Source of the DNA: an uncultured Thermoleophilia bacterium
GTDB taxonomy: Bacteria; Actinomycetota; Thermoleophilia; UBA2241
Assembly (NCBI GenBank): GCA_963791345.1
Contig: CAWBRS010000021.1
Location: forward strand, 208,225-272,224
DNA length: 64,000 nt
Direction of reading: 5' to 3'
The stretch's first letter is position 1. Each line of letters opens with the position of its first letter. The position numbers and the translations under genes are program-made. Of the stretch, positions 44,584-62,275 are shown one piece after another. Below the pieces are notes generated by a model. The model saw only the letters and a list, made by a program, of their open reading frames with translations, was not told the DNA's origin and did not search any database.

Positions 44584-45588
44584 TCACACGGGCAGGGTCG
44601 TGACCCGCGCCACGACCAGCCCGATGAGCACCGCGGCAGCGATGGCGAAGACCCAGATCTCGCGCGGGCCGAGCGGCCCGCGCAGGCCGCGGTCGCCGAA
44701 GCGCATGAGGGCGGTGATCAGCGCGGCCCCGCCGATGAGGCCGCCGACGTGCCCCTGCCAGGAGATGTTGGGGATCGTGAACGTGATCACGAGGTTGAGG
44801 ACGATGACGAACCCGAGGCTGCGCACGAGCTGCTGCGCCATCAGGTCGCGGCCGCGGTTCATGTAGGCGTAGGCGAAGAGCGCCCCGAAGAGGCCGAAGA
44901 TGGCCCCCGACGCGCCCACCGTCGCCGTCGTCGGCGGCGAGGCGGAGAGCACCAGCACCGAGCCGGCGAACCCGGAGAGGACGTACAGAAGGCTGAAGCG
45001 CACCGAGCCGACGACGCGCTCGAGGTACCCGCCGGCGATGTACAGCGCCCACATGTTGAACAGCAGGTGGAAGACGCCGGCGTGGAGGAACATCGCCGTG
45101 AACAGGCGCCAGTACTCGTCGTTGAGCACGACCAGCGCGGGCACGAGGGCGCCGAACCCGCTCAGCGTGCCGTAGCGCGGCAGCGGCGACCCCAGCGCCT
45201 CGAGCAGGAAGTCGAGCACGAAGACGACGACGTTGGCGGCCAGCAGGGCGCGCGTCACCGGGGCGCCGACGACCGCGCGCCCGCCCGTCGCCCAGCGCGA
45301 GCGCATCTGGTCGCGCGTGATCACGCGCGCCCTTGTCGACCCGGTCGACCCGGTCGACCCGGCCTGCTGCTCTCTCATGCACTCGGGGCAGCGGAACCCG
45401 ACCGCGGCCGGGATCATGCACTCGTAGCAGATCGGCCGGCCGCAGTTGGCGCACGACACGCCGGTCTCACGGTCGTGGTGCCGGTAGCAGTAGCTGACCT
45501 CGAGGTCGTCGGGCATGGCGATCTCGAAGTCGGGGGGCAGCTCGGAGGGCGGCGGCGCGGGCGGGGTCGGGAGCTCGGGGTCCGCCAT
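44584..45588 (-). CDS. Rhomboid-family intramembrane serine protease with an N-terminal zinc ribbon
   Basis: The start is at MADPELP. The zinc ribbon is CYRHHDRETGVSCANCGRPICYECM..RCPEC. Rhomboid motifs are FLHAGVFHLLFNM and GASGAIFG. Confidence 0.8.
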   Translation of the reverse strand: MADPELPTPPAPPPSELPPDFEIAMPDDLEVSYCYRHHDRETGVSCANCGRPICYECMIPAAVGFRCPECMREQQAGSTGSTGSTRARVITRDQMRSRWATGGRAVVGAPVTRALLAANVVVFVLDFLLEALGSPLPRYGTLSGFGALVPALVVLNDEYWRLFTAMFLHAGVFHLLFNMWALYIAGGYLERVVGSVRFSLLYVLSGFAGSVLVLSASPPTTATVGASGAIFGLFGALFAYAYMNRGRDLMAQQLVRSLGFVIVLNLVITFTIPNISWQGHVGGLIGGAALITALMRFGDRGLRGPLGPREIWVFAIAAAVLIGLVVARVTTLPV

Positions 45589-46201: not shown

Positions 46202-47476
46202 TCAGGCGAACACGACCTTGGCGGCCTCGTCGAAGATGCCGATCGCGAGGTCCATCTCGGCGTCGCTGATGCTGAGCGGCGGCAGGAAGCGCACGCCGTT
46301 GCCCTGCGAGCAGGCGCCCATGAGGATGACCTTGTGCTTCTGGCACTCGGCGATGAACGCCTTGGCGACCGCGGCGTTGGGCTCCTTGGTGCCGGGCTGC
46401 ACGCACTCGATGGCGAGCATGAGACCCTTGCCGCGCGCCTCGCCGATGACGGGGTACTGGGCCTGCTTGTCCTTCCAGAACTTGAGCAGCTTCTCGCCCT
46501 GCTTCGCCGCGTTGGCGAGCATGCCGTCCTCGACCATCGCGTCCATGGTCGCGACACCGGCGGCGCAGGCCACGGCGTTGCCGCCGTAGGTGCCGCCCAT
46601 CGAGCCGGGCAGGCACTTGTCCCAGAGCTCGTGGCTCGCGGCGATGGCGCCGAGCGGGTAGCCGCTGGCGATGCCCTTGGCCATCGTGAGGATGTCGGGC
46701 TTGATGCCGTAGTGCTCGTGGCAGAACCAGGTGCCCGTGCGGCCCATGCCGGCCTGGATCTCGTCGACGATCAGGCAGGCGCCGATCTCGTCGGCGATGC
46801 CGCGGAGCTGCTGCATGAACTCGGGCGTCGGCACGATGAAGCCGCCCTCGCCCTGGATGGGCTCGACGATGATGGCGGCCACGTCGTCGCCGTAGATCTC
46901 GGCGCGCAGCACGCGGCGCACGTCCTCGATGGCGTAGGCCGTCGGGTCCTCGCTGGCCGGCGTGCGGAACGGATAGCAGTAGCGGGCGTGGTAGATGCAC
47001 GGCACGAGCGGCTCGTGATGGCCGCGGTAGTGCACGGCGGAGTCGGTGAGCGCCATGGTGAGGTGCGTGCGGCCGTGGAAGGCGCCCTGGAAGGCGATGA
47101 TGCCGGGGCGCCGCGTGGCCTGCTTGGCCAGCTTGACCGCGTTCTCGACCGCCTCGGCGCCCGAGTTGGCGAACATGATCTCGTCCATGCCGTCGGGCAG
47201 GATGCCGACGAGCTTCTCGGCCAGCTCGAGCATGGGGCCGTGGCGGTAGATGTTCATCTGCGCGTGCGGGAGCTTGGCGGCCTGCTCCTGCACCGCCTTG
47301 ACGACCTTGGGGTGGCAGTGGCCGGTGTTGACCACGGCGATACCGACGACGAAGTCGAGCCACTTGCCCCCGTCGGTGTCGTAGACCCAGCTGCCCTCGG
47401 CGTGGTCGAGCGTGATCGGCGCCACCGGCCCGAGGAAGTGGGGCATGTGCTTCATGTGAGCGGGCTTGTCTGCCAT
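46202..47476 (-). CDS. Class-III PLP aminotransferase (4-aminobutyrate aminotransferase-like)
   Basis: Intact 424-aa ORF with a GGAGG RBS. Motifs FANSGAEAVENAVKLA, IVDEIQAGMGRTG and TMAKGIASGYPLG. Confidence 0.85.
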   Translation of the reverse strand: MADKPAHMKHMPHFLGPVAPITLDHAEGSWVYDTDGGKWLDFVVGIAVVNTGHCHPKVVKAVQEQAAKLPHAQMNIYRHGPMLELAEKLVGILPDGMDEIMFANSGAEAVENAVKLAKQATRRPGIIAFQGAFHGRTHLTMALTDSAVHYRGHHEPLVPCIYHARYCYPFRTPASEDPTAYAIEDVRRVLRAEIYGDDVAAIIVEPIQGEGGFIVPTPEFMQQLRGIADEIGACLIVDEIQAGMGRTGTWFCHEHYGIKPDILTMAKGIASGYPLGAIAASHELWDKCLPGSMGGTYGGNAVACAAGVATMDAMVEDGMLANAAKQGEKLLKFWKDKQAQYPVIGEARGKGLMLAIECVQPGTKEPNAAVAKAFIAECQKHKVILMGACSQGNGVRFLPPLSISDAEMDLAIGIFDEAAKVVFA

Positions 47477-47696
47477 GGACGGAACCTCCGTAGAGAGCCT
47501 TCTGCCGGGACGACGCGCATGGACGACCTCGGGGCCGCTCCCGCGGGCGGGCGACGGCGCCGCGAGCCCTGCTCGCAGCGGACGAGCAGGGGTCGAGCGG
47601 TACTCTAGCAGACGCTCCCCTCCGCCTCAGTACAAGGCCGCGCGTGCAGGCCACTATTCGACGTCCGCGTTTGGACATTCCGTACAGTGCGGCGCG

Positions 47697-47725
47697 TTGA
47701 CAGGCCAGGTCGCGTGCGGTAGATT
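47697..47725 (+). promoter_or_regulatory. Sigma-70-type promoter of rex
   Basis: TTGACA (47697-47702), a 17-nt spacer, then TAGATT (47720-47725), about 70 nt upstream of the start at 47793. Confidence 0.6.
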
Positions 47726-47741
47726 GTGAATCGGTTCACAG
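47724..47741 (+). promoter_or_regulatory. Rex operator (ROP box) overlapping the -10 element
   Basis: TTGTGAATCGGTTCACAG fits the Rex consensus TTGTGAA-N4-TTCACAA. The Streptomyces ROP is TGTGAACGCGTTCACA. Confidence 0.75.
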
Positions 47742-47792
47742 CGTTCGCTCTGTCACGAATCCAGGGCGGCCCGCGGACGAACGGGAGAGCAG

Positions 47793-48495
47793 GTGGTCTC
47801 ACGCAAGACGGTCGCGCGCATGAGCAGGTATCGCCGCCTGCTCACGGCCCTGCACGCGGCCGGCACCGAGAGCATCTACTCGCATCAGCTCGCGCGCCAC
47901 GCCGTGGTCAGTGCCCCGCAGGTGCGCCGCGACCTCATGGCGATCGGCTACTCGGGCAGCCCCAACAAGGGGTACGACGTCGCCGCCTGCATCGCGAGCA
48001 TCGCGGCCTTCCTCGACGGCGACGCCCGGCAGGACGTGTGCCTGGTCGGGGTCGGCAACCTCGGCCGCGCCGTCCTCGCCCACTTCGCCGAGGCGAGCCC
48101 TTCGGTCGCGATCGTCGCCGCCTTCGACAGCGACCCGGCCCTGCGCGACGCGGTCGTCCACGGCTGCCGCTGCTTCGGCGCCGAGCGCATGGAGCAGCTG
48201 GTGCGCGACCTCGGCATCGACATCGCCGTGCTCACGGTCCCCGGCGAGGCCGCGCAGCAGGTGGCCGACACCCTCGTGCGCGCGGGCGTGAAGAGCCTGA
48301 TCTCCTTCGCCCCCACGCCCCTGCAGCTCCCGCACGAGATCTTCGTCGAGTACATGGACATCACCGCGGCGCTCGAGTCGGCGGCCTATTTCGCCCGGCT
48401 CGGCGCCCGTACGAACGGCAACGGCGAGGCCGGCGAGGCCGAGCTCGCACCGATGGTGCGGCAGCTCGGCTCGCTGCTGGCGAGGAAGAGGATGA
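47793..48495 (+). CDS. rex: Redox-sensing transcriptional repressor Rex; the 3' end is uncertain
   Basis: Motifs RMSRYRRLL, SHQLA....SAPQVRRDLMAIGYSGSPNKGYDV and VCLVGVGNLGRAVL (Rossmann). As sequenced the frame runs on without a stop. A TGA at 48493-48495 in the +1 frame overlaps the next ATG. Confidence 0.8.
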
Positions 48496-48919
48496 GACTC
48501 GAAGAGCTCGCAAAGGACATCGGGGCCCGCGTCGTCACGCCGGGCCGCCCGGGTGGCACCGAGGTCACCCGCATCTACGCCGGCGATCGCGTCAGCGACC
48601 TCCTCAACGAGGCCTCCGACACGACGCTGCTCGTGAGCAACCTGGCCAGCGTCCAGATGCTCCGCGTGGCCGAGCTGATGGACGTGCCCGGCATCTGCTT
48701 CGTCGGCGGCATCGAGCCCGACGACGATGTCATCGAGCTGGCGCGCGCCAACGGCACCCTGCTCATGGTCTCGCCCGTCGGGGTCTTCGAGACCTGCGGC
48801 CTGATCTACCGCTACCTCGGCGGCGAGCGGGAGCAGGGCGCGAACGGCGCCGCCGCGAACGGCGGCGCGGCGCGCCGCAGCGCGAGACCGGCGGGCGCGG
48901 CGCCCGGGACGGAGGCTGA
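48492..48919 (+). CDS. DRTGG-domain protein, copy 1; the 3' end is uncertain
   Basis: MRLEELAKDIGARVV..RIYAGDRVSDLLNEASDTTLLVSNLASVQMLRVAELMDVPGICFVGGIEPDDDVIELARANGTLLMVSP matches the small DRTGG proteins I recall from hydrogenase loci. The end is assumed to be the frame-2 TGA at 48917-48919. Confidence 0.55.
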
Positions 48920-48927
48920 CCGGCGGC

Positions 48928-50624
48928 GTGCAGTACCTCACCTACACGATCCGCGGCAACGACTACAACGAGGCGGGCGCCGCCTCGCGCCTGGTGAAGC
49001 ATCACCTGAAGCGCGTCGGCGCCGACCCCGAGGCGATCCGGCGCACGATGATCGCCGCCTACGAGGCCGAGATGAACGTCGTCATCCACGCCCACCGCGG
49101 GGTGCTCGAGGCGCGGCTCGGCGACTGCCGGGTCGACGTCGACGTCGTCGACGAGGGCCCCGGCATCCCCGACGTCGAGCAGGCGCTGCGCGAGGGGTTC
49201 TCGACGGCCTCGTCCGAGGCCCGCGCCCTGGGTTTCGGGGCCGGCATGGGCCTGCCCAACATCCGGCGCAACAGCGACACCCTCGAGATCGACACGACCC
49301 CGGGCAAGGGGACGCGCGTGAGCTTCAGCGTCAGCCTGAGGCCCGCCTGCCCGACCGACGTCGAGCGCCCGCGCTCGGTGGCCGTCGCCCCGGGGCGCTG
49401 CCGCCAGTGCCTGCACTGCCTCACCGCCTGCCCGACGGCCGCCCTGCGCGTGCGCGACGGCGAGCCCCTGCTGCTCGAGCACCTCTGCATCGACTGCACC
49501 GCCTGCGTCGCCGTCTGCGAGCCCGCCGCCCTGACGATCGACGAGACCGGCGGCGAGCCCGAGCGCGCGACCGAGCTCGTGGCCCTGCCGCCGGCCTTCC
49601 TCGCCGGCTTCGGCGGCGAGGCGCCGCCGGCCGTCGTGGCCCGCGCCGTCGAGACCGGCGGCTTCGCCCGCGTCGTCGCCGCCGACGGCTACGAGCACGC
49701 CCTGCACGACGCCGTGCTCGCCATGGCTCGCGAGGCGGCGGGCGGCGGCGCGACCGGCGGCGAGACCGAGAGCGCGGCGGGCGCGACCGCCGACACGACG
49801 CCCGACGAGACGGCCGCCGCGACGCGCCCCGGCCGGCGGCCGCTGCCGCTGATCTCGCCGGTCTGCCCCGCCGTCGTCAATCTCGTCGAGCTGCGCTTCC
49901 CCTCGCTGCTGCCGCACCTGGCGCCGTTCGCCTCGCCCTGGGAGGCGCTGCAGGACGACGCCGGCGGCGCCTCGGCGACCTTCGTCGTCTCGTGCCCGAG
50001 CCAGCGCACCGCGCTGCTCGAGCGGCGCGCCAGCGGCCTGCGCGGCATCATGACCCCGGCGCGCCTGCGCGAGCGTGTGGCGCCGCTGCTCGCCGGCCAC
50101 GAGGCCGTCGCCGGGCCGGCCCACGGCGCGTCGGCGGCCGCTGCAGCCGAGGTCGACGGACCGGGCGACGCGACGGCTCGCGGCGACCGCGAGACGCTGG
50201 TCGTCAACGGGTTGTCGCACGTCCTGCGCGTGCTCGAGGAGCTCGAGGACGGCCTCCTCGACGACGTGCTCGCCGTGCGAGCCCTACGTCTGCGACGGCG
50301 GCTGCTTCGGCTCGCCGCTGCTCGCCGAGGACGCCGCCGTCGCCGCTCACCGCTGGCGCGGCGGCGCCGCTGCGCCGCGGCCCCGGGGTCGCCCGCCCGC
50401 CGCACCGCGCGCCGGCGGCGCGCCCCGGCATCCGCCTCGACGCCGACATGTCGCGCGCCATCGCCAAGCTCGCCCGTCTCGACGAGCTGACCCGCTCGCT
50501 GCCCGGGCGCGACTGCGGCGCCTGCGGCGCCCCGACCTGCGCGGCGCTCGCCGAGGACATCGTCCTCGAGCGCGCCGCGCGCGCGCTCTGCCCGTACGTG
50601 ACCGAGGAGGAGGCACAGTCATGA
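48928..50624 (+). CDS. RsbW-type serine-kinase-like HATPase fused to a 2x[4Fe-4S] ferredoxin, an [FeFe]-hydrogenase-large-subunit-like domain and a C-terminal Fe-S (DCGACG) domain; two frame breaks
   Basis: HATPase part: EAEMNVVIHA..VDEGPGIPD..GFGAGMGLPNIRR..GKGTRVSF. Ferredoxin part: CRQCLHCLTACP..CIDCTACVAVCEP. Hydrogenase-like part: ISPVCPAVVNLVE and, read from the DNA, VEPYVCDGGCFGSP. The tail is LPGRDCGACGAPTCAALAEDIV. Breaks lie near 50270 and 50390. Confidence 0.7.
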
Positions 50625-50973
50625 CGCTCGACGACATCGCCCGCGAGCTCGAGCTGGTCGAGCTCGTACGCCCAACGAGGTGGAGCGCGCCGCCGAGATG
50701 ACGCGCGGCTACGCCTCGGACCTGCTCAGCGACGTGCTCGCGCACGCCCCGGCCGACGGCGTGCTGGTCACGCTGCAGGTCCACCTGAACGTGGTCGCCG
50801 TGGCCGGACACGCCGACCTCGCCGCGGTGATCTTCGCCGGCGGCCGCCGGCCCGAGGACGACGTCGTCGCCAGGGCGGCCGAGGAGGGCCTTGCCCTCTA
50901 CGGCTGCGAGGCCGACACCTTCGAGATCGTCGGCCGCCTGTACGCCCTCGGGGTCAAGGGGAGCCATGCGTGA
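50621..50973 (+). CDS. DRTGG-domain protein, copy 2; one frame break
   Basis: ATGA overlap with the upstream gene. The sequence reads MTLDDIARELELVELV | ..EVERAAEMTRGYASDLLSDVLAHAPADGVLVTLQVHLNVVAVAGHADLAAVIFAGGRRPEDDVVARAAEEGLALYGCE. The break lies near 50670. Confidence 0.6.
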
Positions 50974-51753
50974 AGCTCTGCACCGCAGACCTGCACGTCC
51001 ACACGGCGCTCTCGCCCTGCGCGGACGACGAGATGACGCCGCCGCGCATCGTGCGAGCGGCGCTCGCGGAGGGGCTCGCGATGATCGCCGTCTGTGACCA
51101 CAACACGACCGGCAACACGGCGGCCGTGCAGGCGGCTGCGGCGGCGACCGCCGTGCAGGCGGCCGCCCTCGACGCGGCCGCCGGCGACGGGCTCGCCGTC
51201 ATCGCCGGCATGGAGATGACGAGCGTCGAGGAGTGCCACGTGGTCGGCCTCTTCCCCGACGCCGAGGCCGCCGCCGGCGCCGGCGCCGAGGTCACGGCCC
51301 TGCTGCCCGCGGCCGACGAGGGCTACGCCGACTTCTTCGGCGAGCAGCGCCTGCTCGCCGCCGACGGCACGCGGCGCGGCGCCGAGCCGGCCGCGCTGGC
51401 GACGGCGACGCCGCTCGACGTCGACGCGGTCGTCGCGCTGATCCATCGCCACGGCGGCGTCGCCGTCGCCGCGCACGTCGACCGGCGCTCGTTCGGCGTC
51501 ATCGGCCAGCTCGGCTTCTTCCCCGCCGGAGGCCGGCTTCGACGCGGTCGAGGTCTCGCGGCACGTGACGGCCGACTCGCCCAAGCTGCGCCGAGTTCGC
51601 CGTCTACGGCCTGCCGCTCCTGCGCTCGTCCGACGCCCACACCCTCGACGCGATCGGGGCGGCGCGCACCGCGCTGCGCGTCGCCGCGCCGACCTTCGCC
51701 GAGCTCGTGCTCGCCCTGCGCGGCCTCGACGGCAGGAGCGTGGCCTTGCATGA
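50970..51753 (+). CDS. PHP-domain (polymerase/histidinol-phosphatase-like) metal-dependent phosphoesterase; two frame breaks and an uncertain 3' end
   Basis: GTGA overlap with the upstream gene. Motifs ADLHVHTALSPCADDEM, IAVCDHNT, AAHVDRRSFG and, read from the DNA, LLRSSDAHTLD. Breaks lie near 51525 and 51590. Confidence 0.65.
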
Positions 51754-52234
51754 CCTCTCGCTCTACCTGCTCGACCTCCTCGAGAACTCCGTGCGCGCCG
51801 GCGCGACGGTGGTCGCGACGCAGATCGTCGCCGACCGCGACGCCGACGAGCTCACGATCCGCGTCGAGGACGACGGGTGCGGGCTGCCGGTCGAGCCCGA
51901 GCAGGCGCTCGACCCCTTCTTCACGACCAAGACGAACAAGAAGACCGGCCTCGGCCTGAGCCTCTTCCGCCAGGCGGCCGAGGCCGCCGGCGGCGGCCTC
52001 AGGTGGGCCCGTCCGACCTCGGCGGCGACGGCGGTGACGGTGCGGATGGGCTACGCGAACGTCGACCGGCCGCCCCTGGGCGACCTGGCGACCAGCCTGC
52101 TGGTCATGGTGGCGACCAACCCGGAGGTCGAGTTCCGGGTCGACCTGCGCGACGGCGACGCGAGCCTTCGCCTGCGCGGCGCCGAGCTGCCCACAGCGGC
52201 TCGGACGCACTGGTCGCCTTCCAGGAGGCAGTGA
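51746..52234 (+). CDS. Small stand-alone HATPase_c-like ATP-binding protein
   Basis: (L/M)HDLSLYLLDLLENSVRAGA..IRVEDDGCGLP..DPFFTTKTNKKTGLGLSLF. A TTG start at 51746 is assumed. As sequenced it is in the same frame as the PHP tail. Confidence 0.55.
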   Translation: MHDLSLYLLDLLENSVRAGATVVATQIVADRDADELTIRVEDDGCGLPVEPEQALDPFFTTKTNKKTGLGLSLFRQAAEAAGGGLRWARPTSAATAVTVRMGYANVDRPPLGDLATSLLVMVATNPEVEFRVDLRDGDASLRLRGAELPTAARTHWSPSRRQ

Positions 52235-52293
52235 CATGACCGACGACCTCCCTGCGAAGCAGATCGCAGCGGAACGACGACGAAGGAGAACGA

Positions 52294-52834
52294 ATGAGCG
52301 ACCAGGCGAAGTCGTGCACCTGCTGCACCGAGGAGCCGACCGAGGAGGAGCTCCTCGAGCGCCTCGACGCGGTCATCGCCGAGTACAAGGGCAAGCCCGG
52401 CGCCCTGATCCCGGTGCTGCAGCTCGCCCAGGGCATCTTCGGCTACCTGCCCGAGGTCGCCCTCAAGCACATCGCGCGCGAACTGCGCAAGCCGTACAGC
52501 GAGGTCGCCGGCGTGGTCGGCTTCTACTCGTTCTTCACGACCGTGCCGCGCGGCAAGCACCTCGTCCGCATCTGCCTCGGCACCGCCTGCTACGTGCGCG
52601 GCGGCGTCCAGGTCCGTGATGGACGCGTTCAAGAAGCAGCTCGGGATCGACATCGGCGGCACCACCGAGGACCGCCAGTTCTCGCTCGAGATCGGCCGCT
52701 GCTTCGGCGCCTGCGGCCTCGCCCCCGTGATCATGATCGACGACGACGTCCATCACCGCGTCAAGCCCAAGCGCGTCGACGAGATCCTCGCCCAGTACGC
52801 CGACGAGCCCGTCCTCGCCGAGAGGAGCGCCTGA
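52294..52834 (+). CDS. hydC: NuoE-like [2Fe-2S] subunit of an electron-bifurcating-type [FeFe]-hydrogenase (HydC/HndA-like); one frame break
   Basis: AAGGAG RBS. Motifs LIPVLQLAQ, RICLGTACYVRGG and GRCFGACGLAPVIMID. The break lies near 52610. Confidence 0.8.
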
Positions 52835-52835
52835 C

Positions 52836-53209
52836 ATGGCGGACAGGATCACCAGCCCCGACCAGCTCAAGGCGCTGGCCGAGAAGGCCAAGGCCGACAT
52901 CGACCTGCGCGACGGCCGCAAGGAGACGCAGGTGACCGTGCACATGGGCACCTGCGGCATCGCCGCCGGCGCGCGCGAGATCGTCGCCGCCTTCATGACC
53001 GAGCTGACCGCCACCGGCGTCACCTCGGCCAGCCTGCACCAGACCGGCTGCGCCGGCCTCTGCGAAGAGGAGCCGATGGCGACCATCACCCAGGCCGACG
53101 GCACCCTGTACCGCTACGGCCTGCTCGACAAGGCCAAGGTGCACACGATCGTCGTCGAACACACCTCGTCGGCGGCACCCCCGTCGAGGCGTACCTCATC
53201 AAGACCTGA
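52836..53209 (+). CDS. Thioredoxin-like [2Fe-2S] ferredoxin (HndB-like); one frame break
   Basis: Motifs VHMGTCGIAAGA and QTGCAGLCEEEP. The tail, read from the DNA, is EHLVGGTPVEAYLIKT*. The break lies near 53160. Confidence 0.7.
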
Positions 53210-53225
53210 GAGCGAGTGAACGACT

Positions 53226-56200
53226 ATGGCTGACGTGAGAAGTCACTTCCTGATCTGCACCGGCGGCGGCTGCATCGCCTCCGGCGCCCTCGACGTGAGC
53301 GAGGCCGTGCGCGCCGAGCTCAAGGCGCGCGAGCTCGCCGGCGAGGTCGACGTCGTCGAGACCGGCTGCCTCGGCCCCTGCGTGCAGGGCCCCGTGGCGC
53401 TCGTCTACCCCGACGGCGTCTTCTACCAGAACATCAAGGTCGACGACGTGCCCGAGATCGTCGAGGAGCACCTGCTCAAGGGCCGCGTCGTCGAGCGCCT
53501 CGTGAGTCACGCGCCCGGCACCGACCGGACCCAGGCGGAGATGGACGACATCCCGTTCTTCAACCGCCAGGTCAAGATCGTGCTGCGCAACTCGCGGCAT
53601 CATCGACCCGCTCAACATCGACGAGTACATCGCCCGCGACGGCTACCAGGCCCTCGCCAAGGTGCTCACCGAGATGACCCCCGAGCAGGTCGTCGACGAG
53701 GTCCTCGCCTCCGGCCTGCGCGGCCGCGGCGGCGCCGGCTTCCCCACCGGGATGAAGTGGCGCTTCGCCCAGCAGCAGGACAACGACACCAAGTACATCC
53801 TCTGCAACGCCGACGAGGGCGACCCCGGCGCGTTCATGGACCGCTCGGTGCTCGAGGGCGACCCGCACTCGCTCATCGAGGGCATGGTCATCGGCGCCTT
53901 CGCCATCGGCGCGCACCAGGGCTACGTGTACGTGCGCGCCGAGTACCCGCTCGCCGTCGAGCGCCTCGAGCACGCGCTCGGGCAGGCGCGCGAGTACGGC
54001 CTGCTCGGCAACGACATCATGGGCAGCGGCTTCGACTTCGACCTCGAGATCCGCATGGGCTCCGGCGCCTTCGTCTGCGGCGAGGAGACCGCGCTCATGA
54101 CCTCGATCGAGGGTCACCGCGGCGAGCCGCGCCCGCGCCCGCCGTTCCCGGCGGTCTCGGGCCTCTGGGGCAAGCCCAGCGTGCTCAACAACGTCGAGAC
54201 CTTCGCCAACATCGCGCCGATCATCCTCAAGGGCGCCGAGTGGTACGCGAGCACCGGTACCGAGAGCAGCAAGGGCACCAAGGTGTTCGCGCTCGGCGGC
54301 AACGTGCAGCACACCGGCCTCGTCGAGGTCCCGATCGGCATGCAGCTCGGCGAGCTCATCTACGAGGTCGGCGGCGGCATCCCGAACGGCAAGGCGTACA
54401 AGGCCGCCCAGCTCGGCGGCCCCTCGGGCGGCTGCATCCCCAAGGAGCACCTCAACGTGCCCGTCGACTACGCCACCCTGCAGGAGCTCGGCGCGATCAT
54501 GGGCTCCGGCGGCGTCATCGTCATGGACGAGGACACCTGCATGGTCGACATCGCCCGCTTCTTCCTCGAGTTCACGCAGGAGGAGAGCTGCGGCAAGTGC
54601 CCGCCGTGCCGCGTCGGCACCAAGCGGATGCTCGAGATCGTCGAGCGCATCTGCCACGGCGAGGGCGAGGAGGGCGACATCGAGCGCCTCATCGCCCTCG
54701 GCGAGTCGATCAGCCAGACCGCGCTCTGCGGCCTCGGCCAGACGGCGCCCAACCCGGTGCTCTCGACGATCCGCCACTTCCGCCACGAGTACGAGGCCCA
54801 CATCAAGGACAAGTACTGCGAGGCCGGCGTCTGCTCGACGCTGTTCAAGGCGCGCTGCTCCAACGCGTGCCCGGCGAGCGTCAACATCCCCGGCTTCGTG
54901 AGCCTCGTCGGCGAGGAGCGCTACGACGACGCGCTCAAGCTGCACCGCGAGCGCAACCCGCTGGCCAGCATCTGCGCCCGCGTCTGCTTCCACCCCTGCG
55001 AGAGCAAGTGCATGCGCTCGAGCCTCGACGGCGCCCTCGCGATCCGCCACGTCAAGCGCTTCATGGTCGAGCAGGAGAAGGACGCCGCAGCTGCCGGAGA
55101 TCCTGGAGAACGCCGAGAACGCGGCCCGCAAGGTCGCCGTCGTCGGCTCCGGGCCCGCCGGCCTCTCCGCCGCCTACTTCCTCGCCCGGCTCGGCTACAA
55201 GCCGGTCGTGTTCGAGGCCGAGCCCAAGGCCGGCGGCATGCTCGTCCAGGCCATCCCGGCCTACCGCCTGCCGCGTCCCGAGCTCGAGCGCGAGATCGAG
55301 ATGATCGAGGCCATGGGCGCGCGCTTCGAGTACGGCAAGGCGCTCGGCCGCGACTTCACGCTCCAGAGCCTCAAGGACGAGGGCTACGAGGCCGTGTTCG
55401 TCGGCGTCGGCGCCCCCGCAGGGCATGGGCATCGGCGTCCCCGGCGAGGACGGCCCCGGCGTGTACGACGGGCTCTCCTTCCTCAAGCAGTACAACGTCC
55501 ACGGCACCGGCGAGGTCGGCAAGAACGTCGCCGTGATCGGCGGCGGCAACGCGGCCATCGACGCCGCCCGCACCGCCCTGCGCCTCGGCGCCGAGTCGGT
55601 CAAGATCCTCTACCGCCGCACCCGGGCGCAGATGCCGGCGTGGGGCGAGGAGATCGACGCCGCCGACCTCGAGGGCATCGACATCATGACGCTCGTCGCC
55701 CCGGAGGAGATCCTCCGCGACGCGAGCGGCAAGGTCACCGGCGTGCGCTGCAAGGAGATGGCGCTGGGCGACTACGACCGCAGCGGCCGTCGCCGTCCGG
55801 TGGCCGGCCACAACCCCGACTTCGTGGTCGAGGCCGACACCGTCATCGCCGCCATCGGCCAGAAGCTCGACGCCGCCGCCGTCCTGGACGGCACCGCCGT
55901 CGAGCTCAACCGCTGGGGCTACCTCGCCGGCCGACCCGAACACCGGCCAGACCTCGGTCGACTGGGTGTTCACCGGCGGCGACGCCGCCACCGGCCCGTC
56001 GTCGGTCGTCGAGGCCATCGGCGCCGGCGAGCGGGCCGCGGCCGGCATGGACGAGCTCCTGACCGGCGCCAACCACGCCTTCTGGCGCCGCGACATCGAG
56101 CCGCCGACCTTCTTCGACCCCGACGCCGACCCCGAGCTGGTCGATCGTCACGAGGTCGAGGAGCTGGCCGGTCGCGGCCCGCGTCACCAACTTCGACGAG

Positions 56201-56284
56201 GTCGAGCTGGGCTGGGCCGCACAGGTGGCCCTCGCTGAGGCGAGGCGCTGCCTGCGTTGCGACTACGGCAAGTACGGCTCGTGA
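53226..56284 (+). CDS. hydB: NuoF-like flavoprotein subunit (HydB/HndC-like) fused to a GltD/NfnB-like NAD(P)H:FAD oxidoreductase module; about 5 frame breaks
   Basis: The N-terminal 2Fe-2S Trx-like part is [14 protein letters not shown]. The NuoF core carries [27 protein letters not shown] and [10 protein letters not shown]. The GltD-like part carries [55 protein letters not shown] and a C-terminal [13 protein letters not shown]. Breaks lie near 53600, 55085, 55420, 55935 and 56165. Confidence 0.8.
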
Positions 56285-56301
56285 GCAAGGAGAGCAAGAG
56301 G

Positions 56302-58074
56302 ATGCCAACCCTGACCATTGACGAGATCAAGGTCGAGGTGCCGGAGGGCACCACGGTCCTTCAGGCGGCCCGCCAGGCCGGCGTGAAGATCCCCACCCTC
56401 TGCTTCCTCGACGACGTCCAGTCCATCGGCGCCTGCCGCGTGTGCCTCGTCGAAGTCGAGGGCGCCCGCACGCTGGTCGCCTCGTGCAGCCAGCCGGCGA
56501 CCGACGGCATGGTCGTCAAGACCAACACCGGCAAGGTGCGCGACGGCCGCAAGATGGTCGTCGAGCTGCTCCTCTCGGAGCACGACGGCGACTGCCAGGT
56601 CTGCGGCCGGTCCGCCGACTGCGAGCTGCGCACGCTCGCCGACGAGCTCGGCATCGGCGACCTGCGCTACGAGGGCGAGAAGACCTTCCGGATGATCGAC
56701 GAGAGCACCCCGGCGCTCATCCGCGACACCGGCAAGTGCATCTCCTGCCGCCGCTGCGTGACGGTGTGCAACGAGGTCCAGGAAGTGGGCGGCCTGTTCG
56801 CCCAGGGCCGCGGCTTCGCCACCCTCATCGGCCCGGCCTTCTCGCAGAACCTGAGCGACGTCGTCTGCGTGCAGTGCGGCCAGTGCGCCGCCGTGTGCCC
56901 CGTGGGCGCCATCCAGGAGCGCAACCAGATCGACGAGGTCTGGGACGCGCTCGAGGACCCCACCAAGACCGTCATCGTGCAGACCGCGCCGGCGATCCGC
57001 GCCGCGCTCGGCGAGTGCTTCGACTACCCGGCCGGCACCCTGGTGACCGGCAAGATGGTCGCCGCCCTGCGCCGGCTCGGCTTCGACGCCGTCTTCGACA
57101 CCGACTTCACCGCCGACCTCACGATCATGGAGGAAGGCACCGAGCTGCTCGTGCGCCTCAAGAAGGCGCTCGTCGACGGCGAGCAGGTCGCTCTGCCGCA
57201 GTTCTCCAGCTGCTCCCCGGGCTGGATCAACTACATGGAGCACTTCAACCCCGACATGCTCGCCAACCTGAGCACCTGCAAGAGCCCGCAGCAGATGTTC
57301 GGGGCGATCGCCAAGACCTACTACGCCGAGAAGATCGGCGTGAAGCCGGAGGACATGGTCGTCGTCTCGGTCATGCCCTGCACCGCCAAGAAGTACGAGG
57401 CGGCGCGCCCGGAGATGAACGACAGCGGCGTGCAGGACGTCGACATCGTGCTCACCACGCGTGAGCTCGGCGCGTTCATCAAGCAGGCCGGCATCGACTT
57501 CCGCAGCCTGCCCGACGAGGAGATGGACGCGCCGCTGGGCATCAGCACCGGCGCCGCCGACATCTTCGCCAACACCGGCGGCGTCATGGAGGCGGCCCTG
57601 CGCACGGCGTGGGAGATCGTCACCGAGACGCCGTTCCCCTTCCCCAACCTGCACGTCGAGCCCATCGAGGGTCTCGAGGGCGTGAAGGTCGCCACCGTCA
57701 AGGTCGAGGGGGCCAAGGGCGACTGGGCGTTCCTCGAAGGCGCCGACCTCAAGGTCGCCGTGGCCCACGGCCTCGGCAACGCGCAGAAGGTCATCGACCA
57801 GGTCAAGAGCGGCGAGGCCGAGTACCACTTCGTCGAGGTCATGACCTGCCCCGGCGGCTGCATCGGCGGCGGCGGGCAGCCGCGCTTCACGACCAACGAG
57901 GTGCGCATGAAGCGCATCGAGGCCATCTACCGCGAGGACGAGGGCCGCGAGCTGCGCAAGTCGCACGAGAACCCCGCCGTCTGCGCCCTGTACGAGGAGT
58001 ACCTCGGGGCGCCGTGCGGCGAGATCTCGCACCACCTCCTGCACACCCACTACTTCGAGCACGACCGCGTCTGA
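56302..58074 (+). CDS. hydA: [FeFe]-hydrogenase catalytic subunit (M3 architecture: 2Fe-2S, a His-ligated 4Fe-4S, two 4Fe-4S clusters and an H-cluster domain)
   Basis: Intact ORF. The start is taken at MPTLTIDE. N-terminal cluster motifs are CFLDDVQSIGACRVC, HDGDCQVCGRSADCEL, CISCRRCVTVC and CVQCGQCAAVCP. H-cluster motifs are P2 VMPCTAKKYE, P3 EVMTCPGGCIGGGGQP and an atypical P1 SSCSPGW. Confidence 0.9.
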   Translation: MPTLTIDEIKVEVPEGTTVLQAARQAGVKIPTLCFLDDVQSIGACRVCLVEVEGARTLVASCSQPATDGMVVKTNTGKVRDGRKMVVELLLSEHDGDCQVCGRSADCELRTLADELGIGDLRYEGEKTFRMIDESTPALIRDTGKCISCRRCVTVCNEVQEVGGLFAQGRGFATLIGPAFSQNLSDVVCVQCGQCAAVCPVGAIQERNQIDEVWDALEDPTKTVIVQTAPAIRAALGECFDYPAGTLVTGKMVAALRRLGFDAVFDTDFTADLTIMEEGTELLVRLKKALVDGEQVALPQFSSCSPGWINYMEHFNPDMLANLSTCKSPQQMFGAIAKTYYAEKIGVKPEDMVVVSVMPCTAKKYEAARPEMNDSGVQDVDIVLTTRELGAFIKQAGIDFRSLPDEEMDAPLGISTGAADIFANTGGVMEAALRTAWEIVTETPFPFPNLHVEPIEGLEGVKVATVKVEGAKGDWAFLEGADLKVAVAHGLGNAQKVIDQVKSGEAEYHFVEVMTCPGGCIGGGGQPRFTTNEVRMKRIEAIYREDEGRELRKSHENPAVCALYEEYLGAPCGEISHHLLHTHYFEHDRV

Positions 58075-58125
58075 GACGCGGCGCACGGAAGACGGCGGCC
58101 GGGCGCGTGGGCGGCGCGCCCGCGA

Positions 58126-58151
58126 GGCGGCCCCGGGAGACCGGGGCCGCC
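58126..58151 (+). terminator. GC-rich hairpin downstream of hydA
   Basis: 11-bp stem ggcggccccgg / ccggggccgcc with loop gaga. Confidence 0.45.
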
Positions 58152-58237
58152 TCCGGGGCCGCCGCGAGCCGGCCGAGCCATAGTCGCCGCAGCGACTACT
58201 GGGGGCCCGAAGGCCACGCTATACTGAAGGCGGAACA

Positions 58238-58646
58238 TGAGCGCAGAGCACAGGCACTGATACTCATCGTCGACGACGACTTCGACTTCCTCGAGATCAA
58301 CCGCATCATCCTCGAGGGGGCCGGCTACCGCGTGGTCACCGCCACCAACCCCGCCGAGGCGCAGACGCGCATCGACGCCGAGGCGCCCGACCTCGTCATC
58401 ACCGACCTGATGATGACGAGCATCGACGCCGGCTTCGCCTTCGCCGCCCGGCTCAAGGGCGACCCGCGCACCGCCGGCGTGCCGATCATCATCAGCACGT
58501 CGGTGAGCAGCGCGCTCGGCCTGAACTTCCGCCCCGACTCGGCCGAGGACCTCGCCAAGATGAACGTCGACGCCTACTTCGACAAGCCCATCGACGCGCA
58601 GGCGCTGCTCGCCAAGGTCGGCGAGCTGCTCGCCGCCCGCGGCTGA
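58238..58646 (+). CDS. Single-domain response regulator (CheY-like receiver); one frame break near the start
   Basis: Motifs [28 protein letters not shown] and YFDKP. The ATG at 58238 follows a TATACT -10-like hexamer and is out of frame with the receiver body. The break lies near 58255. Confidence 0.7.
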
Positions 58647-58667
58647 TGCGCCGCCGGGTGCCGGCCG

Positions 58668-60740
58668 ATGAACGAAGACAGAGTCCCCTACCTCCAGCTC
58701 GTCACGACCATCCGGCGAGAAGTGCCGCCGGTGCTACACCTGCGTGCGCGAGTGCCCGGCCAAGGCCATCCAGATCGAGGACGGCCAGGCGAGCGTCATC
58801 CAGACGCGCTGCATCGGCTGCGGCAACTGCGTCACCGTCTGCAGCCAGAACGCCAAGCAGGTGCTCAGCGGCATCGAGGCCACCGAGGACCTGCTCGCCG
58901 GCGACGCGCCCGTCGCGGCGATCGTGGCGCCGAGCTACCCGGCCGAGTTCACGGAGTGCAGCACGGCCGGCCTGGTCGGCGCCCTCCGCGAGCTCGGGTT
59001 CGCCGAGCGTCCACGAGGTGAGCTTCGGCGCCGACCTCGTCGCCGCGCGAGTACGCCCGCCTGCTCGAGCGAGGACGACGGGCGCCACATCGCCACCACC
59101 TGCCCGGCGGTGGTCAGCTACGTGCGCAAGTACCACCCCGACATCCTCGACCGCCTCGCGCCCATCGTCTCGCCGATGCTGGCGATCGCGCGCGTGCTGC
59201 ACAAGAAGTACGGGCCCGAGCTCAAGATCGTCTTCGTCGGGCCCTGCATCGCCAAGAAGGGCGAGGCGCGCTACGAGCAGTTCGAGGGCGAGGTCGCACG
59301 CGGCGCTCACCTACGTGCGAGCTCCGCGCCCTGCTCGCCGCGCGCGGCGTCGAGCCTCGACCGTCGCGCGACGCGCCGGCGACGACTTCGACCCGCCGCA
59401 CGGCAGCCTCGGCGCCCTCTTCCCCATCACCCGCGGGCATGCTGCAGGCGGCCGACCTCGACGAGGACCTGCTGAGCGGCGACATCGTGAGCGCCGACGG
59501 GCGCGCAGAACCTGGTCGAGGCGATCACCGACTTCGAGCACGGCGACACCGAGGCGCGCCTGCTGGACATCCTCTGCTGCGAGGGCTGCATCATGGGCGC
59601 CGGCTTCAGCTGCGAGGAGCCGGTCTTCAAGCGCCGCTCGGACGTCAGCGCCGAGACCCGCGCCCGCCAGGCCGGCTTCGACCAGGCGGCCTGGGAGGCC
59701 GCGGTCGCGCGAGTACGCCGACATCGACCTCTCGCGCACCTTCGCGCCCTTCGACCAGCGCTTCGACGACATGCCGACGCAGGAGGAGCTGCGGGAGATC
59801 CTCGCGCGCATGAACAAGTACGGCGACGAGGACGAGCTCGACTGCGGCGCCTGCGGCTACGACTCCTGCCGCGACCACGCGGTCGCCATCTGGCAGGGGC
59901 TCGCCGAGGTCGAGATGTGCCTGCCGTACTCGGTCGAGGAGCTGCGCAAGACCGTCGACGAGCTGCAGCAGTCCAACCTCTCCCTGGAGACGACCAAGGA
60001 GGCGCTGGTCAAGAGCGAGAAGCTCGCCAGCATGGGCCAGCTCGCGGCCGGCATCGCCCACGAGGTCAACAACCCGCTCGGCATCCTCCTGCTGCACGCC
60101 AACCTGCTGCTCGAGGACTGCGAGGACGACACCGCAGGACGGCCGAGGACGTCAAGCTCATCGTCGACCAGGCCAACCGCTGCAAGAAGATCATCTCCGG
60201 CCTGCTCAACTTCGCCCGCCAGAGCCGGGTGGTGCGCCAGCCGACGGACCTCACCAACCTGGTGGCCGAGGTCCTGCGCACGCATCCCCGTCGCCGAGGG
60301 CGTCTCGGTGGAGGTCGACGACCACCTCGAGGACCCCGATCGCCGAGCTCGACGGCGACCAGATCGTCCAGGTGCTCACCAACCTGCTCACCAACGCCCA
60401 GCACGCGATGCCCGACGGCGGCACGCATCACGGTCACGCTCGACGGCACCGAGGAGAACGTCATCGTCACCGTGCGGGACGAGGGCACGGGCATCCCCGA
60501 CGGAGAACCTCGACAAGCTGTTCAGCCCGTTCTTCACGACCAAGCAGGTCGGCAAGGGCACGGGCCTCGGCCTCGCCGTGACCCACGGCATCGTCAAGAT
60601 GCACCGCGGCCAGATCACCGTGGAGTCCAACGCCGACCCCGCCACGCGGCCCGACCGGCACCACGTTCAGCATCTCCCTGCCGAGGTACGAGGCGGAGAC
60701 GGACGTCCCGGCCAGCCTGCAGGAGATCACCGGGAGCTGA
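58668..60740 (+). CDS. Sensory [FeFe]-hydrogenase-like domain fused to a histidine kinase (2x[4Fe-4S] ferredoxin, H-cluster-like domain, DCGACG Fe-S domain, HisKA, HATPase_c); many frame breaks
   Basis: Read across frames: [25 protein letters not shown]-cluster-like motifs are [21 protein letters not shown] and [12 protein letters not shown]. The Fe-S domain is [19 protein letters not shown]. Kinase motifs are [33 protein letters not shown] and [15 protein letters not shown]. Confidence 0.75.
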
Positions 60741-60743
60741 GGC

Positions 60744-62044
60744 ATGAACCCCGACCCGACAGCCCGCGAGAGCCTCATGGACCCGCAGCAGGTCACGCTC
60801 AAGGTCGTCATGGTCGACGACGAGGAGGCGCTCTGCCTCGGCGTGCGCCGCATCATCCAGAAGTACAAGGTGCACGTCGCCGACGTGCTCGTCGACGCCG
60901 ACTACGAGTTCCGCTACTTCACCAGCGGCGAGGACTACCTCGCCTGGCTCGGCGAGGGCGGCGAGGTCGACCTCCTGCTGCTCGACCTCAAGCTGCCGGG
61001 CGTCGGCGGCATGGACGTCCTCGACGCCATGAGCGCCCAGGGCCGTGAGGTCCTCACCATCATGATCACGGCCTACGCGACCTTCGAGACGGCCGTCAAG
61101 GCGACCAAGCTCGGCGCCTACGACTTCCTCGCCAAGCCGTTCACCCCGGAGGAGCTCCGCTACGCGCTGCGCAAGGCGACGAGCCAGCTCATCCTGAGCA
61201 AGCAGGCGCGCAAGCTCGCCGAGGAGAAGCGCGAGATCCGCTTCAACTTCATCTCGGTGCTCGCGCACGAGCTCAAGGCGCCGCTCAACGCCGTCGAGGG
61301 CTACCTCAACATCCTGCGCACGACCGAGGCCGACCAGAACCTGCAGATGGTCGAGCGCAGCATCGTGCGCGTGGACGGCATGAAGAAGCTCATCATGGAC
61401 CTGCTCGACCTCACGCGCATCGAGTCCGGCCAGCGCGAGCGCGTCGATCAGGCGCCTCGACCTGCGCGAGCTGGCCAAGGCGTCGATGGAGCTGTTCGCC
61501 GTCGACGCCGAGCGCCGCGGCATCACCGTGAAGCTCGAGGACGCGCGACGACGTCGAGCTCCTGGCCGACCCCGGCGAGGTCGAGATCGTCTTCAACAAC
61601 CTCATCTCGAACGCCGTCAAGTACAACCGCGACGGCGGCGCGCGTGCAAGGTCAAGCTGAGCCGCAAGGGCGACGCCGTGACGCGTCACCGTCAGCGACA
61701 CCGGCATCGGCCTCAGCGCCGAGGAGGCCGGCAAGCTGTTCAACGAGTTCAAGCGCATCAAGAACGAGCAGACGGTCAAGATCCTCGGCAGCGGCCTCGG
61801 CCTCAGCACGGTGCGCAAGATCGCCAACATGTACGACGGCGAGGCGAGGGTCACGAGCGAGCCCGGCGTGGGCAGCACCTTCACGGTCACGCTGCACGAC
61901 GCGCCGCCGGCGGCCGCGGGCGAGACCGGCGAGCCGCGCGACGCCGCCGTCCGGCGGCGCCGCAGCTCTGATCGAGCGGCCCCGTCTTGGCTCGCGACTT
62001 CGCGCCTGTGCGAAGATGTGCGATACTACCAGCGACGCTCGTGA
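60744..62044 (+). CDS. Hybrid receiver-histidine kinase (REC, HisKA, HATPase_c); at least 4 frame breaks and an uncertain 3' end
   Basis: Motifs [63 protein letters not shown] and [12 protein letters not shown]. Breaks lie near 61445, 61545, 61650 and 61685. Confidence 0.75.
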
Positions 62045-62275
62045 CCCCTTGCACAAGCGGCCGCACGATGCGTTAGATACTGAGCGCAGCTGAGGCCAGT
62101 ACCGAACGTGGATCCTGTGGAGTGAGCGGCCAGCACTCGACGTCACTCTCGTCCGTCCCTGCCTCTTCGGCACCCGCCGTGGTCGTCCGCGACCGGCGCT
62201 CGTGTGCGCCTCGCGACGGTCGCGCGGCGGGCGACCCGCCTCGCCAGGGGGAACAGAAACGGACTGAAGGAGTGC

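Follow-up and report, generated by a model that had tools for sequence, protein, structure and literature searches.

Genes at the locus

The DNA analysed here, called the window, is a stretch of 64,000 nucleotides from an uncultured Thermoleophilia bacterium (GenBank assembly GCA_963791345.1, contig CAWBRS010000021.1, positions 208,225 to 272,224), and the genes in question occupy positions 47793–52234 of it, 5' of the structural genes for an [FeFe] hydrogenase. It is well supported that this interval is a regulatory part of the hydrogenase operon; we read it as the 5', regulatory half of a single operon under Rex control, which encodes a hydrogenase of the HydABC type (the electron-bifurcating type). 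Five proteins are predicted to be encoded: a Rex repressor extended by a DRTGG domain (Rex–DRTGG), a kinase fused to a hydrogenase-like sensor (kinase–HydS), a free DRTGG protein, a PHP phosphoesterase and an orphan ATPase domain of the histidine-kinase type (Table 1). The interval ends at the stop codon of the last of these genes.

The window, with a G+C content of ~71%, was read in the three forward frames over 47793–52300, and the pieces were scanned against Pfam. The scan matched Rex (PF06971 and PF02629), HATPase_c_2, two Fer4 domains, Fe_hyd_lg_C, FeS (PF04060), PHP with PHP_C, and HATPase_c. A preliminary description of this DNA had named the domains, quoted their motifs and pointed to two overlaps of stop and start codons (ATGA at 50621–50624 and GTGA at 50970–50973), and all of these were found where it placed them; only the DRTGG domains stayed under the Pfam gathering score, and their assignment depends on the comparison of a family profile with the PDB. 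The overlaps are real and suggest translational coupling, which falls short of the co-translation that had been claimed.

Two contigs of relatives (L001 and L002) hold the whole locus with uninterrupted genes. L001 was used as the reference for comparisons with the window, and frame differences were placed by tblastn and blastn of L001 against the window. In both contigs an aminotransferase gene on the opposite strand is followed by genes for Rex–DRTGG (376–383 residues), a protein composed of the kinase, two Fer4 domains, Fe_hyd_lg_C and FeS (529–553 residues), the 117-residue DRTGG-2 protein, PHP (265–274 residues), HATPase_c (163 residues), a NuoE-like protein (182 residues), a ferredoxin (134 residues), a NuoF–GltD fusion (1017 residues), HydA (590 residues), a response regulator, and a histidine kinase with a hydrogenase-like domain of its own.

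Table 1. Features of the hydrogenase operon, numbered from the first nucleotide of the window
Feature	Position	Strand	Remarks
Sigma-70-like promoter, TTGACA, 17-nucleotide spacer, TAGATT	47697..47725	+	10/12 matches
Rex operator TTGTGAATCGGTTCACAG	47724..47741	.	overlaps the −10 element; 1 mismatch to TTGTGAAnnnnTTCACAA
rex-DRTGG1 fusion gene	47793..48919	+	Rex ~47793–48401; DRTGG-1 ~48492–48840, with GDRVSDLL 48582–48605; stop codon 48917–48919
kinase-HydS fusion gene	48928..50624	+	spans three frames in the window as deposited
DRTGG-2	50621..50973	+	117 residues in relatives; SDLLSDVL 50716–50739
PHP phosphoesterase	50970..51748	+	HxH 50988, CDHNT 51093, SDAH 51626
Orphan histidine-kinase-type ATPase (CA) domain	51746..52234	+	163 residues in relatives; without DHp/HisKA; N-box 51776, G1 51869, PFFTTK 51914, G2 51947
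Structural genes	52294..58074	+	same promoter; NuoE-like HydC 52294–52834; 2Fe-2S ferredoxin 52836–53219; NuoF–GltD fusion 53226–56281 (five frameshifts); group A HydA 56302–58074, intact

The Rex–DRTGG protein, promoter and operator

No stop codon separates rex from the part named DRTGG-1 (48492 onward), and Rex–DRTGG is one open reading frame (ORF) in all eight actinobacterial loci. The window protein returned 636 database matches, of which the best 120 were all 336–392 residues long, aligned with 94–100% coverage and annotated as plain Rex. The N-terminal 210 residues score above NCBIfam cutoffs (NF003995, 179 bits against 126). The reading frame and the lengths of the relatives indicate that DRTGG-1 is the C-terminal domain of Rex and not a separate gene. 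The preliminary description had counted it among five separate genes and had placed the cassette between rex and the hydrogenase genes. Its list of domains stands, whereas its gene boundaries do not: since rex and DRTGG-1 are one gene, rex is itself a member of the cassette. Hundreds of database entries named Rex bear this unannotated extra domain.

The promoter 5' of rex is the only sigma-70-like site found in 47400–61500. For the Rex operator on it, 0.13 matches per window would be expected at three or fewer mismatches, and the same operator lies 57–69 nucleotides 5' of rex in L001–L003. Two weaker operator-like sites with three mismatches each were also seen, one at 44775–44792, inside a rhomboid/peptidase gene region, and one at 62039–62056. 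When the actinobacterial operator consensus was applied to the Firmicute loci, few sites were returned; this result carries little weight, because clostridial Rex boxes differ.

The kinase–HydS protein

The kinase domain was assigned by Pfam PF13581 (E = 1.5e-10, above cutoff); against TIGR01925 it gave E = 2.9e-11 with a score of 43, far under the cutoff of 135. Its N-box (49063), G1 box (49150) and G2 box (49231) are invariant among homologues. An AlphaFold2 (AF2) model was made of an intact relative of kinase–HydS (P0003; mean predicted local distance difference test, pLDDT, 73). In Foldseek comparisons its N-terminal 140 residues superposed on SpoIIAB with a target-normalised template modelling (TM) score of 0.82 and on RsbW with scores of 0.83–0.88, in agreement with the RsbW type assigned earlier, and the rest of the model superposed on the hydrogenases DdH, CpI and CbA5H over ~420 columns. 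When the reconstructed window protein was compared with solved structures, [FeFe] hydrogenases were matched with LPLISPVCPAVV aligned on LPMFTSCCPAWV, the N-terminus resembled SpoIIAB, and the C-terminus resembled the [4Fe-4S] domains found in the corrinoid/Fe-S protein and in RnfB.

Behind the kinase lies a module with two [4Fe-4S] motifs at 49399–49518 (CRQCLHCLTAC at 49399 and CIDCTACVAVC at 49486), whose eight cysteines are invariant in 35 homologues. The H-domain that follows matches Fe_hyd_lg_C weakly (E = 3e-6) and contains the motifs L1 (SPVCPAVV, 49855), L2 (VSCPSQR, 49987) and L3 (VCDGGCFGSP, 50288); the four H-cluster cysteines, one each in L1 and L2 and two in L3, are invariant. 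The position of Cys299 is occupied by Val in SPVCPAVV, which aligns to TSCCP of DdH and of HydA2 from the hydrogen-dependent CO2 reductase (HDCR), and by Ala137 in TamHydS. At the C-terminus a Cx2Cx4Cx16C motif, DCGACGAPTCAALAEDIVLERAARALC, lies at 50511–50591 (DCGACG at 50511; Pfam FeS, E = 5.6e-12). Pfam gave no match to a PAS domain in the window kinase–sensor. An Arg-x-Arg in the N-terminal domain and a Glu-Asp after the third C-terminal cysteine are invariant in the fused proteins; in TamHydS the equivalent residues are predicted to bridge the two domains.

By motifs and identity, the sensor part resembles the putative sensory [FeFe]-hydrogenases of group D (M2e). The published architecture of this group comprises two N-terminal [4Fe-4S] motifs, the H-domain and a C-terminal Cx2Cx4Cx16C motif with no PAS domain, in which Cys299 is replaced by Ala, M353 by Ser and M497 by Leu; the genes lie 5' of a trimeric bifurcating hydrogenase, beside a histidine-kinase-like ATPase. 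One member, TamHydS, has been characterised spectroscopically and electrochemically (PMC8163306, PMC10407848, PMC13104023), and we used its published residue numbers as a fingerprint. In a 437-residue unfused sensor from Thermoanaerobacteraceae (L045), 26 of 27 published TamHydS positions match, which ties the unfused sensors of the cassette to group D. The cassette had been put forward as the best candidate in the window for an undescribed system, a claim that cannot be kept for the sensor since its unfused relatives are group D HydS proteins. Fused sensors are 29–34% identical to unfused M2e proteins, and among themselves 41–57% identical across phyla.

Fused and unfused sensors were then aligned with group A HydA and their motifs were tabulated across all loci; the fused set comprised 14 loci, in 11 of which L2 was readable. 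Unfused sensors have L2 of the form (S/T)PCxxK, with the Lys in nearly all readable loci, and most loci carry a GWxxSGGE loop, in which S249 and E252 of TamHydS constitute a proposed proton relay. The fused L2 reads xxCP(S/A)(Q/E)x, with Gln or Glu and no Lys at Cys+3 in all 11 readable loci. The SGGE motif was found in none of the 14 fused loci; a variable low-complexity linker rich in Ala, Gly and Pro stands in its place, in the window as well. In the fused proteins all cysteines of the ferredoxin motifs (eight) and of the H-cluster (four) are nevertheless invariant, as is the C-terminal cluster motif. It had been described for the window alone that the cysteines are kept and the P2 motif is degenerate; both are borne out, and the degenerate L2 (P2) motif extends throughout the readable fused clade. 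Because the L2 lysine and the SGGE loop are gone, Fe-S clusters may be the sole cofactors of the fused clade, and its signal may be the redox state instead of H2.

A genuine H2 sensor would be the alternative. In this case, the fused protein would bind a complete H-cluster like TamHydS and signal the H2 partial pressure to the kinase, and the loss of lysine and loop would only tune its reactivity. The retained cysteines and C-terminal motif and the hydrophobic replacement of C299 fit such a sensor, as does the fact that the unfused group D relatives bind the H-cluster and react with H2; the catalytic HydA of the same operon implies that the maturation machinery is present in the cell. These points are opposed by Gln or Glu in place of the lysine in the 11 readable fused loci and by the replacement, in all 14, of the loop with the proposed relay Glu252. 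Substitution of this lysine in group A enzymes reportedly abolishes occupancy of the di-iron site (Knorzer et al. 2012). We regard H2 sensing by the fused protein as unlikely, while taking it as a serious contender.

Among the unfused sensors, three (L038, L051 and L075, from Enterenecus, Flavonifractor and an Oscillospiraceae genome) apparently have no L2 lysine and show CTQGC in L3, so that the site may have degenerated outside the fused clade too.

Integrity of the window copy

In the deposited sequence the kinase–HydS gene is not one ORF. The kinase, the Fer4 domains and L1 and L2 lie in frame 1 (48928–50277), the L3 motif in frame 2 (50279–50357) and the FeS domain in frame 0 (50359–50624); compared with intact relatives, the breaks correspond to one extra base at ~50278 and another at ~50358. 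A protein search with the 520-residue ORF at 48928–50490 found the identical ORF of the deposited assembly (P0001, on a 743-kb contig) and, besides it, intact kinase–sensor proteins of 529–554 residues that are 79–86% identical and annotated as Thermoleophilia. The preliminary description had kinase and sensor in a single polypeptide, which does not hold for the window as deposited, with its three frames, and does hold for these relatives. It had also considered that a corrected sequence might split the fusion into ordinary genes; by comparison with the relatives the fusion is real, and correction restores it.

Every other cassette gene bears indels too. A frame-breaking length difference near 48865 shifts the tail of rex-DRTGG1 to another frame, DRTGG-2 lacks a base near 50668, and PHP has extra bases near 51526 and 51588. 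At 51746 the loss of one nucleotide abolishes the stop codon of PHP, whose frame then runs on into that of the small HATPase (…GRSVALHDLSLY…); in L001 the two are separate genes that overlap by 8 nucleotides. The small HATPase gene itself has a −1/+1 pair at 52001/52027. In the NuoE and NuoF–GltD genes the frame changes about seven more times, and there are further changes in the downstream histidine kinase, giving at least 17 frame-breaking indels in 48.8–60.7 kb, most of them 1-nucleotide insertions outside homopolymers. Four upstream genes (43.3–47.5 kb), hydA and the response regulator are intact. A frame-plot of the G+C content at third codon positions (GC3) over the whole window was too noisy for counting frameshifts outside the locus. 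Programmed frameshifting in the kinase–sensor gene was considered and rejected; the indels are scattered across all genes of the locus and none occurs in intact relatives.

The shifted segments retain 75–92% amino-acid identity to relatives. Measured against L001, the ratio of nonsynonymous to synonymous substitution rates (dN/dS) was 0.19–0.44 for the cassette genes, 0.34 for the intact hydA, and 0.63–0.66 for NuoE and NuoF–GltD; these values are compressed by the extreme GC3 bias and indicate only that the cassette genes are no different from intact genes. An intact rex-DRTGG encoding 377 residues with 99% identity (P0121) is present in other samples. Because of the retained identity, the dN/dS values and this intact homologue, it is most likely that the frameshifts are assembly errors, or else very recent lesions. 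Their clustering could be due to an unpolished stretch of the assembly, perhaps a repeated locus, or to recent decay.

Decay would mean that the cluster is a set of non-functional pseudogenes in the source organism, whatever the family does elsewhere. The concentration of the indels in this locus, beside genes that are intact, speaks for decay, and the higher dN/dS of NuoE and NuoF–GltD points the same way. Conversely, large deletions are absent, premature stops were not noticed inside the matched segments of the cassette genes, and the predominance of single-base insertions resembles a spectrum of errors; together with the identity, the dN/dS of the cassette genes and the 99% identical rex-DRTGG, this makes a decaying cluster doubtful.

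Distribution, gene order and natural fusions

A scan with one genome per species found relatives in at least 576 genomes, and 80 loci were fetched. Gene maps were drawn from six-frame ORFs with iterated hidden Markov models (HMMs) seeded from the L001 proteins, covering 82 loci from about eight phyla. The usual order is DRTGG (~117 residues), kinase (~140 residues), sensor (~425–470 residues), DRTGG (~110 residues) and PHP (~240 residues), in a block that adjoins or diverges from genes for NuoE, a HATPase (185 residues), ferredoxin, NuoF and HydA. Among loci with enough flanking sequence, the upstream DRTGG gene was present in 67 of 79, the downstream one in 69 of 75, and PHP in 70 of 72; hydABC-type genes lay nearby in 30 of 34, which upholds the proposed link of the cassette to a hydrogenase. 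The occurrence of the gene set beside bifurcating hydrogenases, stated in the preliminary description for Thermoanaerobacterales and Thermotogae, is right for the former; the sensor neighbouring the Thermotoga enzyme is a PAS-containing group C (M2f) protein.

Kinase and sensor are encoded separately in Clostridia (among them the cultured Enterocloster citroniae, Clostridium transplantifaecale and Acutalibacter intestini), Thermoanaerobacteraceae, Synergistota, Bacteroidales and Caldatribacterium. Fused genes occur in four phyla: Actinomycetota, Spirochaetota, one Brocadiia genome, and Deltaproteobacteria/Myxococcales. The kinase–sensor matched at least 955 database proteins, and nearly all of the best 120 have kinase, hydrogenase-like and FeS domains, so the fusion is not special to the window. 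A different fusion, of DRTGG-1 with the kinase (269–270 residues), occurs in a Thermosediminibacteraceae and a Clostridia genome (L016, 9596–10405, 45% G+C; L019, 9593–10405, 39% G+C), with a separate rex directly 5' whose stop codon overlaps the next start. Read together, the three independent fusions (Rex–DRTGG, DRTGG–kinase and kinase–HydS) link HydS, the kinase, DRTGG-1 and Rex in a chain.

In Spirochaetota and one Myxococcales locus (L007, L009, L010, L013, L014 and L032) the cassette is preceded by a histidine kinase and a response regulator (~466–555 residues), in the place that Rex takes in Actinomycetota; some of these loci also have both DRTGG genes behind the fused kinase–sensor.

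Three observations concern the genes 3' of the cassette. A GltD-like NAD(P)H/FAD domain extends the NuoF-like subunit and may point to a different nucleotide specificity; this fusion accompanies the fused kinase–sensor in Actinomycetota, Spirochaetota, Brocadiia and Deltaproteobacteria, while the Firmicute NuoF is plain (~596 residues). The L1 motif of the catalytic HydA reads FSSCSPGW (57202–57225, residues 301–308) against the textbook TSCCPxW, and (T/S)SCSPGW is found in 41 of 42 HydA proteins adjoining the cassette. Lastly, 3' of hydA lie a stand-alone response regulator (58251–58631) and a histidine kinase (58714–60674) that comprises Fer4, Fe_hyd_lg_C, FeS, HisKA and HATPase domains, has the L2 lysine (FVGPCIAKK) and is frameshifted as well. 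The operon is thus flanked by two different hydrogenase-derived sensors.

The DRTGG, PHP and orphan ATPase proteins

Against Pfam DRTGG (PF07085), DRTGG-1 gave E = 0.023 and DRTGG-2 gave E = 5e-4. A profile of 35 cassette DRTGG proteins aligned with the whole of PDB 2IOJ (E = 2.9e-5) and also matched a CBS-pyrophosphatase in its DRTGG domain (3L2B/3L31, E = 9e-5). HMMs built separately for DRTGG-1 and DRTGG-2 came to recognise identical ORFs, two in each locus. The motif TGGDR, from which the domain has its name (AF_1212), is not conserved; the cassette proteins have TVMGN or TGLxN aligned there. Across both DRTGG types the sole invariant residues are the D and S of D-[LM]-[LM]-S, which the window has at both sites (Table 1).

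The PHP protein scores 29.9 bits against PF02811 (cutoff 26.4) and 27 against PHP_C (cutoff 21.3), and HVH, CDHN and SDAH are present. The small HATPase is the catalytic domain of a histidine kinase without DHp, and its nearest solved relatives are KinB, ZraS and SrrB. No match to STAS, PP2C or sigma-factor domains was obtained among the scanned cassette proteins.

A proposed redox switch on Rex

We propose that the cassette is a switch by which a sensed redox state reaches Rex. The Fe-S and H-domain module would read the reducing state of the cell. H2 is a plausible signal in the unfused relatives; in the fused clade the redox state of ferredoxin or of Fe-S clusters would be more probable than H2, since the fused proteins have neither the lysine nor the loop by which the di-iron site is held and served. 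The sensed state would set the activity or the partner affinity of the attached kinase, whose targets would be the DRTGG domains, most likely through phosphate transfer to the invariant DxxS serine, and the PHP enzyme would reset the switch. Since one DRTGG domain is part of Rex, the switch could extend to Rex and change its occupancy of the operator that overlaps the −10 element of the operon. Expression of the hydrogenase would then integrate NADH/NAD+, via Rex, with a second redox signal, via HydS. What is directly supported is which domains are present, that the gene order is conserved, that the three fusions occur, that a promoter and an operator lie ahead of rex, and that lysine and loop have been lost. 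Every biochemical step we infer from domain families, fusions and one invariant serine, and the full chain, from the sensor to the occupancy of the operator, is in our estimation possible and somewhat short of probable.

Several points weigh against it. DRTGG domains elsewhere, as in CBS-pyrophosphatase and Pta, are associated with nucleotides and allosteric regulation, so that DxxS could be a ligand site. The closest solved relatives of the PHP protein (2YB1, 3E0F and 7UG9) are nucleotide phosphoesterases or RNases and not protein phosphatases; because of this, and because the similarity is weak, a role as protein phosphatase is a guess. The proposed mechanism leaves the orphan ATPase unexplained. 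Rex adjoins the cassette in only 10 of the 82 loci, and spirochaetes have a histidine kinase and a response regulator instead, so Rex would not be a universal output. The AF2 model of Rex–DRTGG is poor (pLDDT 61, predicted TM score 0.38), and the position of the invariant serine in it, at the start of a helix after a strand, is a weak hint. Since the cassette has no STAS or PP2C domain, the analogy to partner switches leans on substitutes. The window cassette has nine indels in 3.4 kb, part of the cluster in 48.8–60.7 kb with intact genes upstream, and this copy could therefore be non-functional. Finally, the phosphorylation, binding and DNA-binding steps are, for all components, our inference.

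A rival explanation dispenses with protein phosphorylation. The GHKL domains would be ATP/ADP-dependent binding modules, the DRTGG domain would bind a nucleotide ligand, and PHP would hydrolyse that nucleotide. It draws on the nearest solved PHP relatives, which are pAp phosphatases and a 5'-3' exoribonuclease, on the nearest NCBIfam models, which are nucleotide or nuclease enzymes, and on the match of the DRTGG profile to the regulatory domain of CBS-pyrophosphatase. Proteins of the SpoIIAB type, moreover, act by binding as well as by catalysis, and SpoIIAB sequesters sigma F. What counts against a nucleotide switch is that the kinase has complete and invariant ATP-binding and catalytic boxes, that one invariant hydroxyl residue in both DRTGG types is the expected look of a phospho-acceptor, and that no sigma factor is encoded in the cassette. 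On balance we find it rather improbable.

It is very improbable that the hydrogenase has these proteins as accessory, maturation or electron-transfer subunits. In Firmicutes the gene for the orphan ATPase does lie within the structural block, with NuoE on one side and ferredoxin on the other, and the Fe-S clusters of the sensor make up a full electron-transfer chain, but the fusions to DNA-binding Rex and to an anti-sigma-type kinase point to signalling, and purified HydABC complexes and their solved structures are not known to contain any of the cassette proteins.

The proposed chain from HydS to Rex can be taken further. In its boldest form, the fused clade would lack a di-iron site and be an Fe-S redox sensor, the kinase would phosphorylate the DRTGG serine and PHP would reverse this, and the cassette would be a new partner switch, with DRTGG for STAS and PHP for PP2C, whose target in Actinomycetota is Rex itself. 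We think it improbable that all of this holds. If it were true, one promoter would integrate the redox states of NADH and ferredoxin, the two substrates co-consumed by the bifurcating hydrogenase.

Groups C and D of the [FeFe] hydrogenases are termed sensory by inference only, and for the mechanism the Rex–DRTGG protein is the most informative feature found here. The chain of fusions gives a concrete, testable wiring diagram that names partner proteins, a serine and an operator. The cassette is present in at least 576 species-level genomes, among them those of gut Clostridia, thermophilic biofuel organisms, spirochaetes and actinobacteria, and it adjoins the enzyme that sets the balance of H2 and reduced fermentation products.

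Comparison with known systems

Neither the gene set of the cassette nor the sensor family is new to the literature. Earlier comparative papers list "D M2e" genes next to kinases and bifurcating hydrogenases, and the genes of the same operon are itemised in a paper on a Halanaerobium genome. Full-text literature searches returned only such descriptive operon listings; functional work on the genes for the kinase, DRTGG or PHP was not found, in line with the earlier statement that the gene set lacks a published mechanism. How group D proteins transduce their signal is given as unknown (PMC8163306) and was an open question for Land et al. We could not find descriptions of the fused lysine-less sensor clade, the Rex–DRTGG fusion, the DRTGG–kinase fusion or the shared DxxS motif.

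With TamHydS and group D, the window sensor shares the two [4Fe-4S] motifs, the four-cysteine H-domain, a hydrophobic residue for C299, the C-terminal Cx2Cx4Cx16C motif with Asp before its first and Glu-Asp after its third cysteine, the lack of PAS, and a gene position 5' of a trimeric bifurcating hydrogenase beside a kinase-like ATPase. It differs in that the kinase is fused, the L2 Lys is Gln, the SGGE loop with the proposed relay Glu is absent, M497 is Tyr instead of Leu, and the Asp before the last cysteine is not conserved.

The group C (M2f) systems, represented by Ruminococcus albus HydS, Thermoanaerobacterium HfsABCD and Thermotoga maritima HydS, likewise have a hydrogenase-derived sensor beside a Ser/Thr kinase and a bifurcating hydrogenase, and a link to Rex has been discussed for them. 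In contrast to the window cassette, which has DRTGG and PHP proteins, they signal via PAS and are paired with a PP2C-type phosphatase.

The eukaryotic Nar1/NARFL proteins presumably represent the state suspected for the fused clade, with the hydrogenase fold and the Fe-S cysteines kept and the residues of the di-iron site absent. They work in Fe-S protein assembly and not in signalling, and there is no evidence that the degenerate state is shared by descent. If the fused clade truly lacks the di-iron site, it would be a bacterial case of a hydrogenase fold reused purely as an Fe-S sensor.

The window Rex has the N-terminal part, above cutoffs, and the canonical operator on its own promoter that are typical of the Rex repressor, to which it adds a C-terminal DRTGG domain of ~150 residues. 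The Bacillus switches SpoIIAB–SpoIIAA–SpoIIE and RsbW–RsbV–RsbU have the kinase fold and the ATP-binding boxes in common with the cassette and, in the proposed logic, also a set of three players: the kinase, its small alpha/beta partner bearing a conserved serine, and the phosphatase. In the window, unlike in Bacillus, STAS, PP2C and sigma-factor matches are absent, and the output is apparently the repressor Rex.

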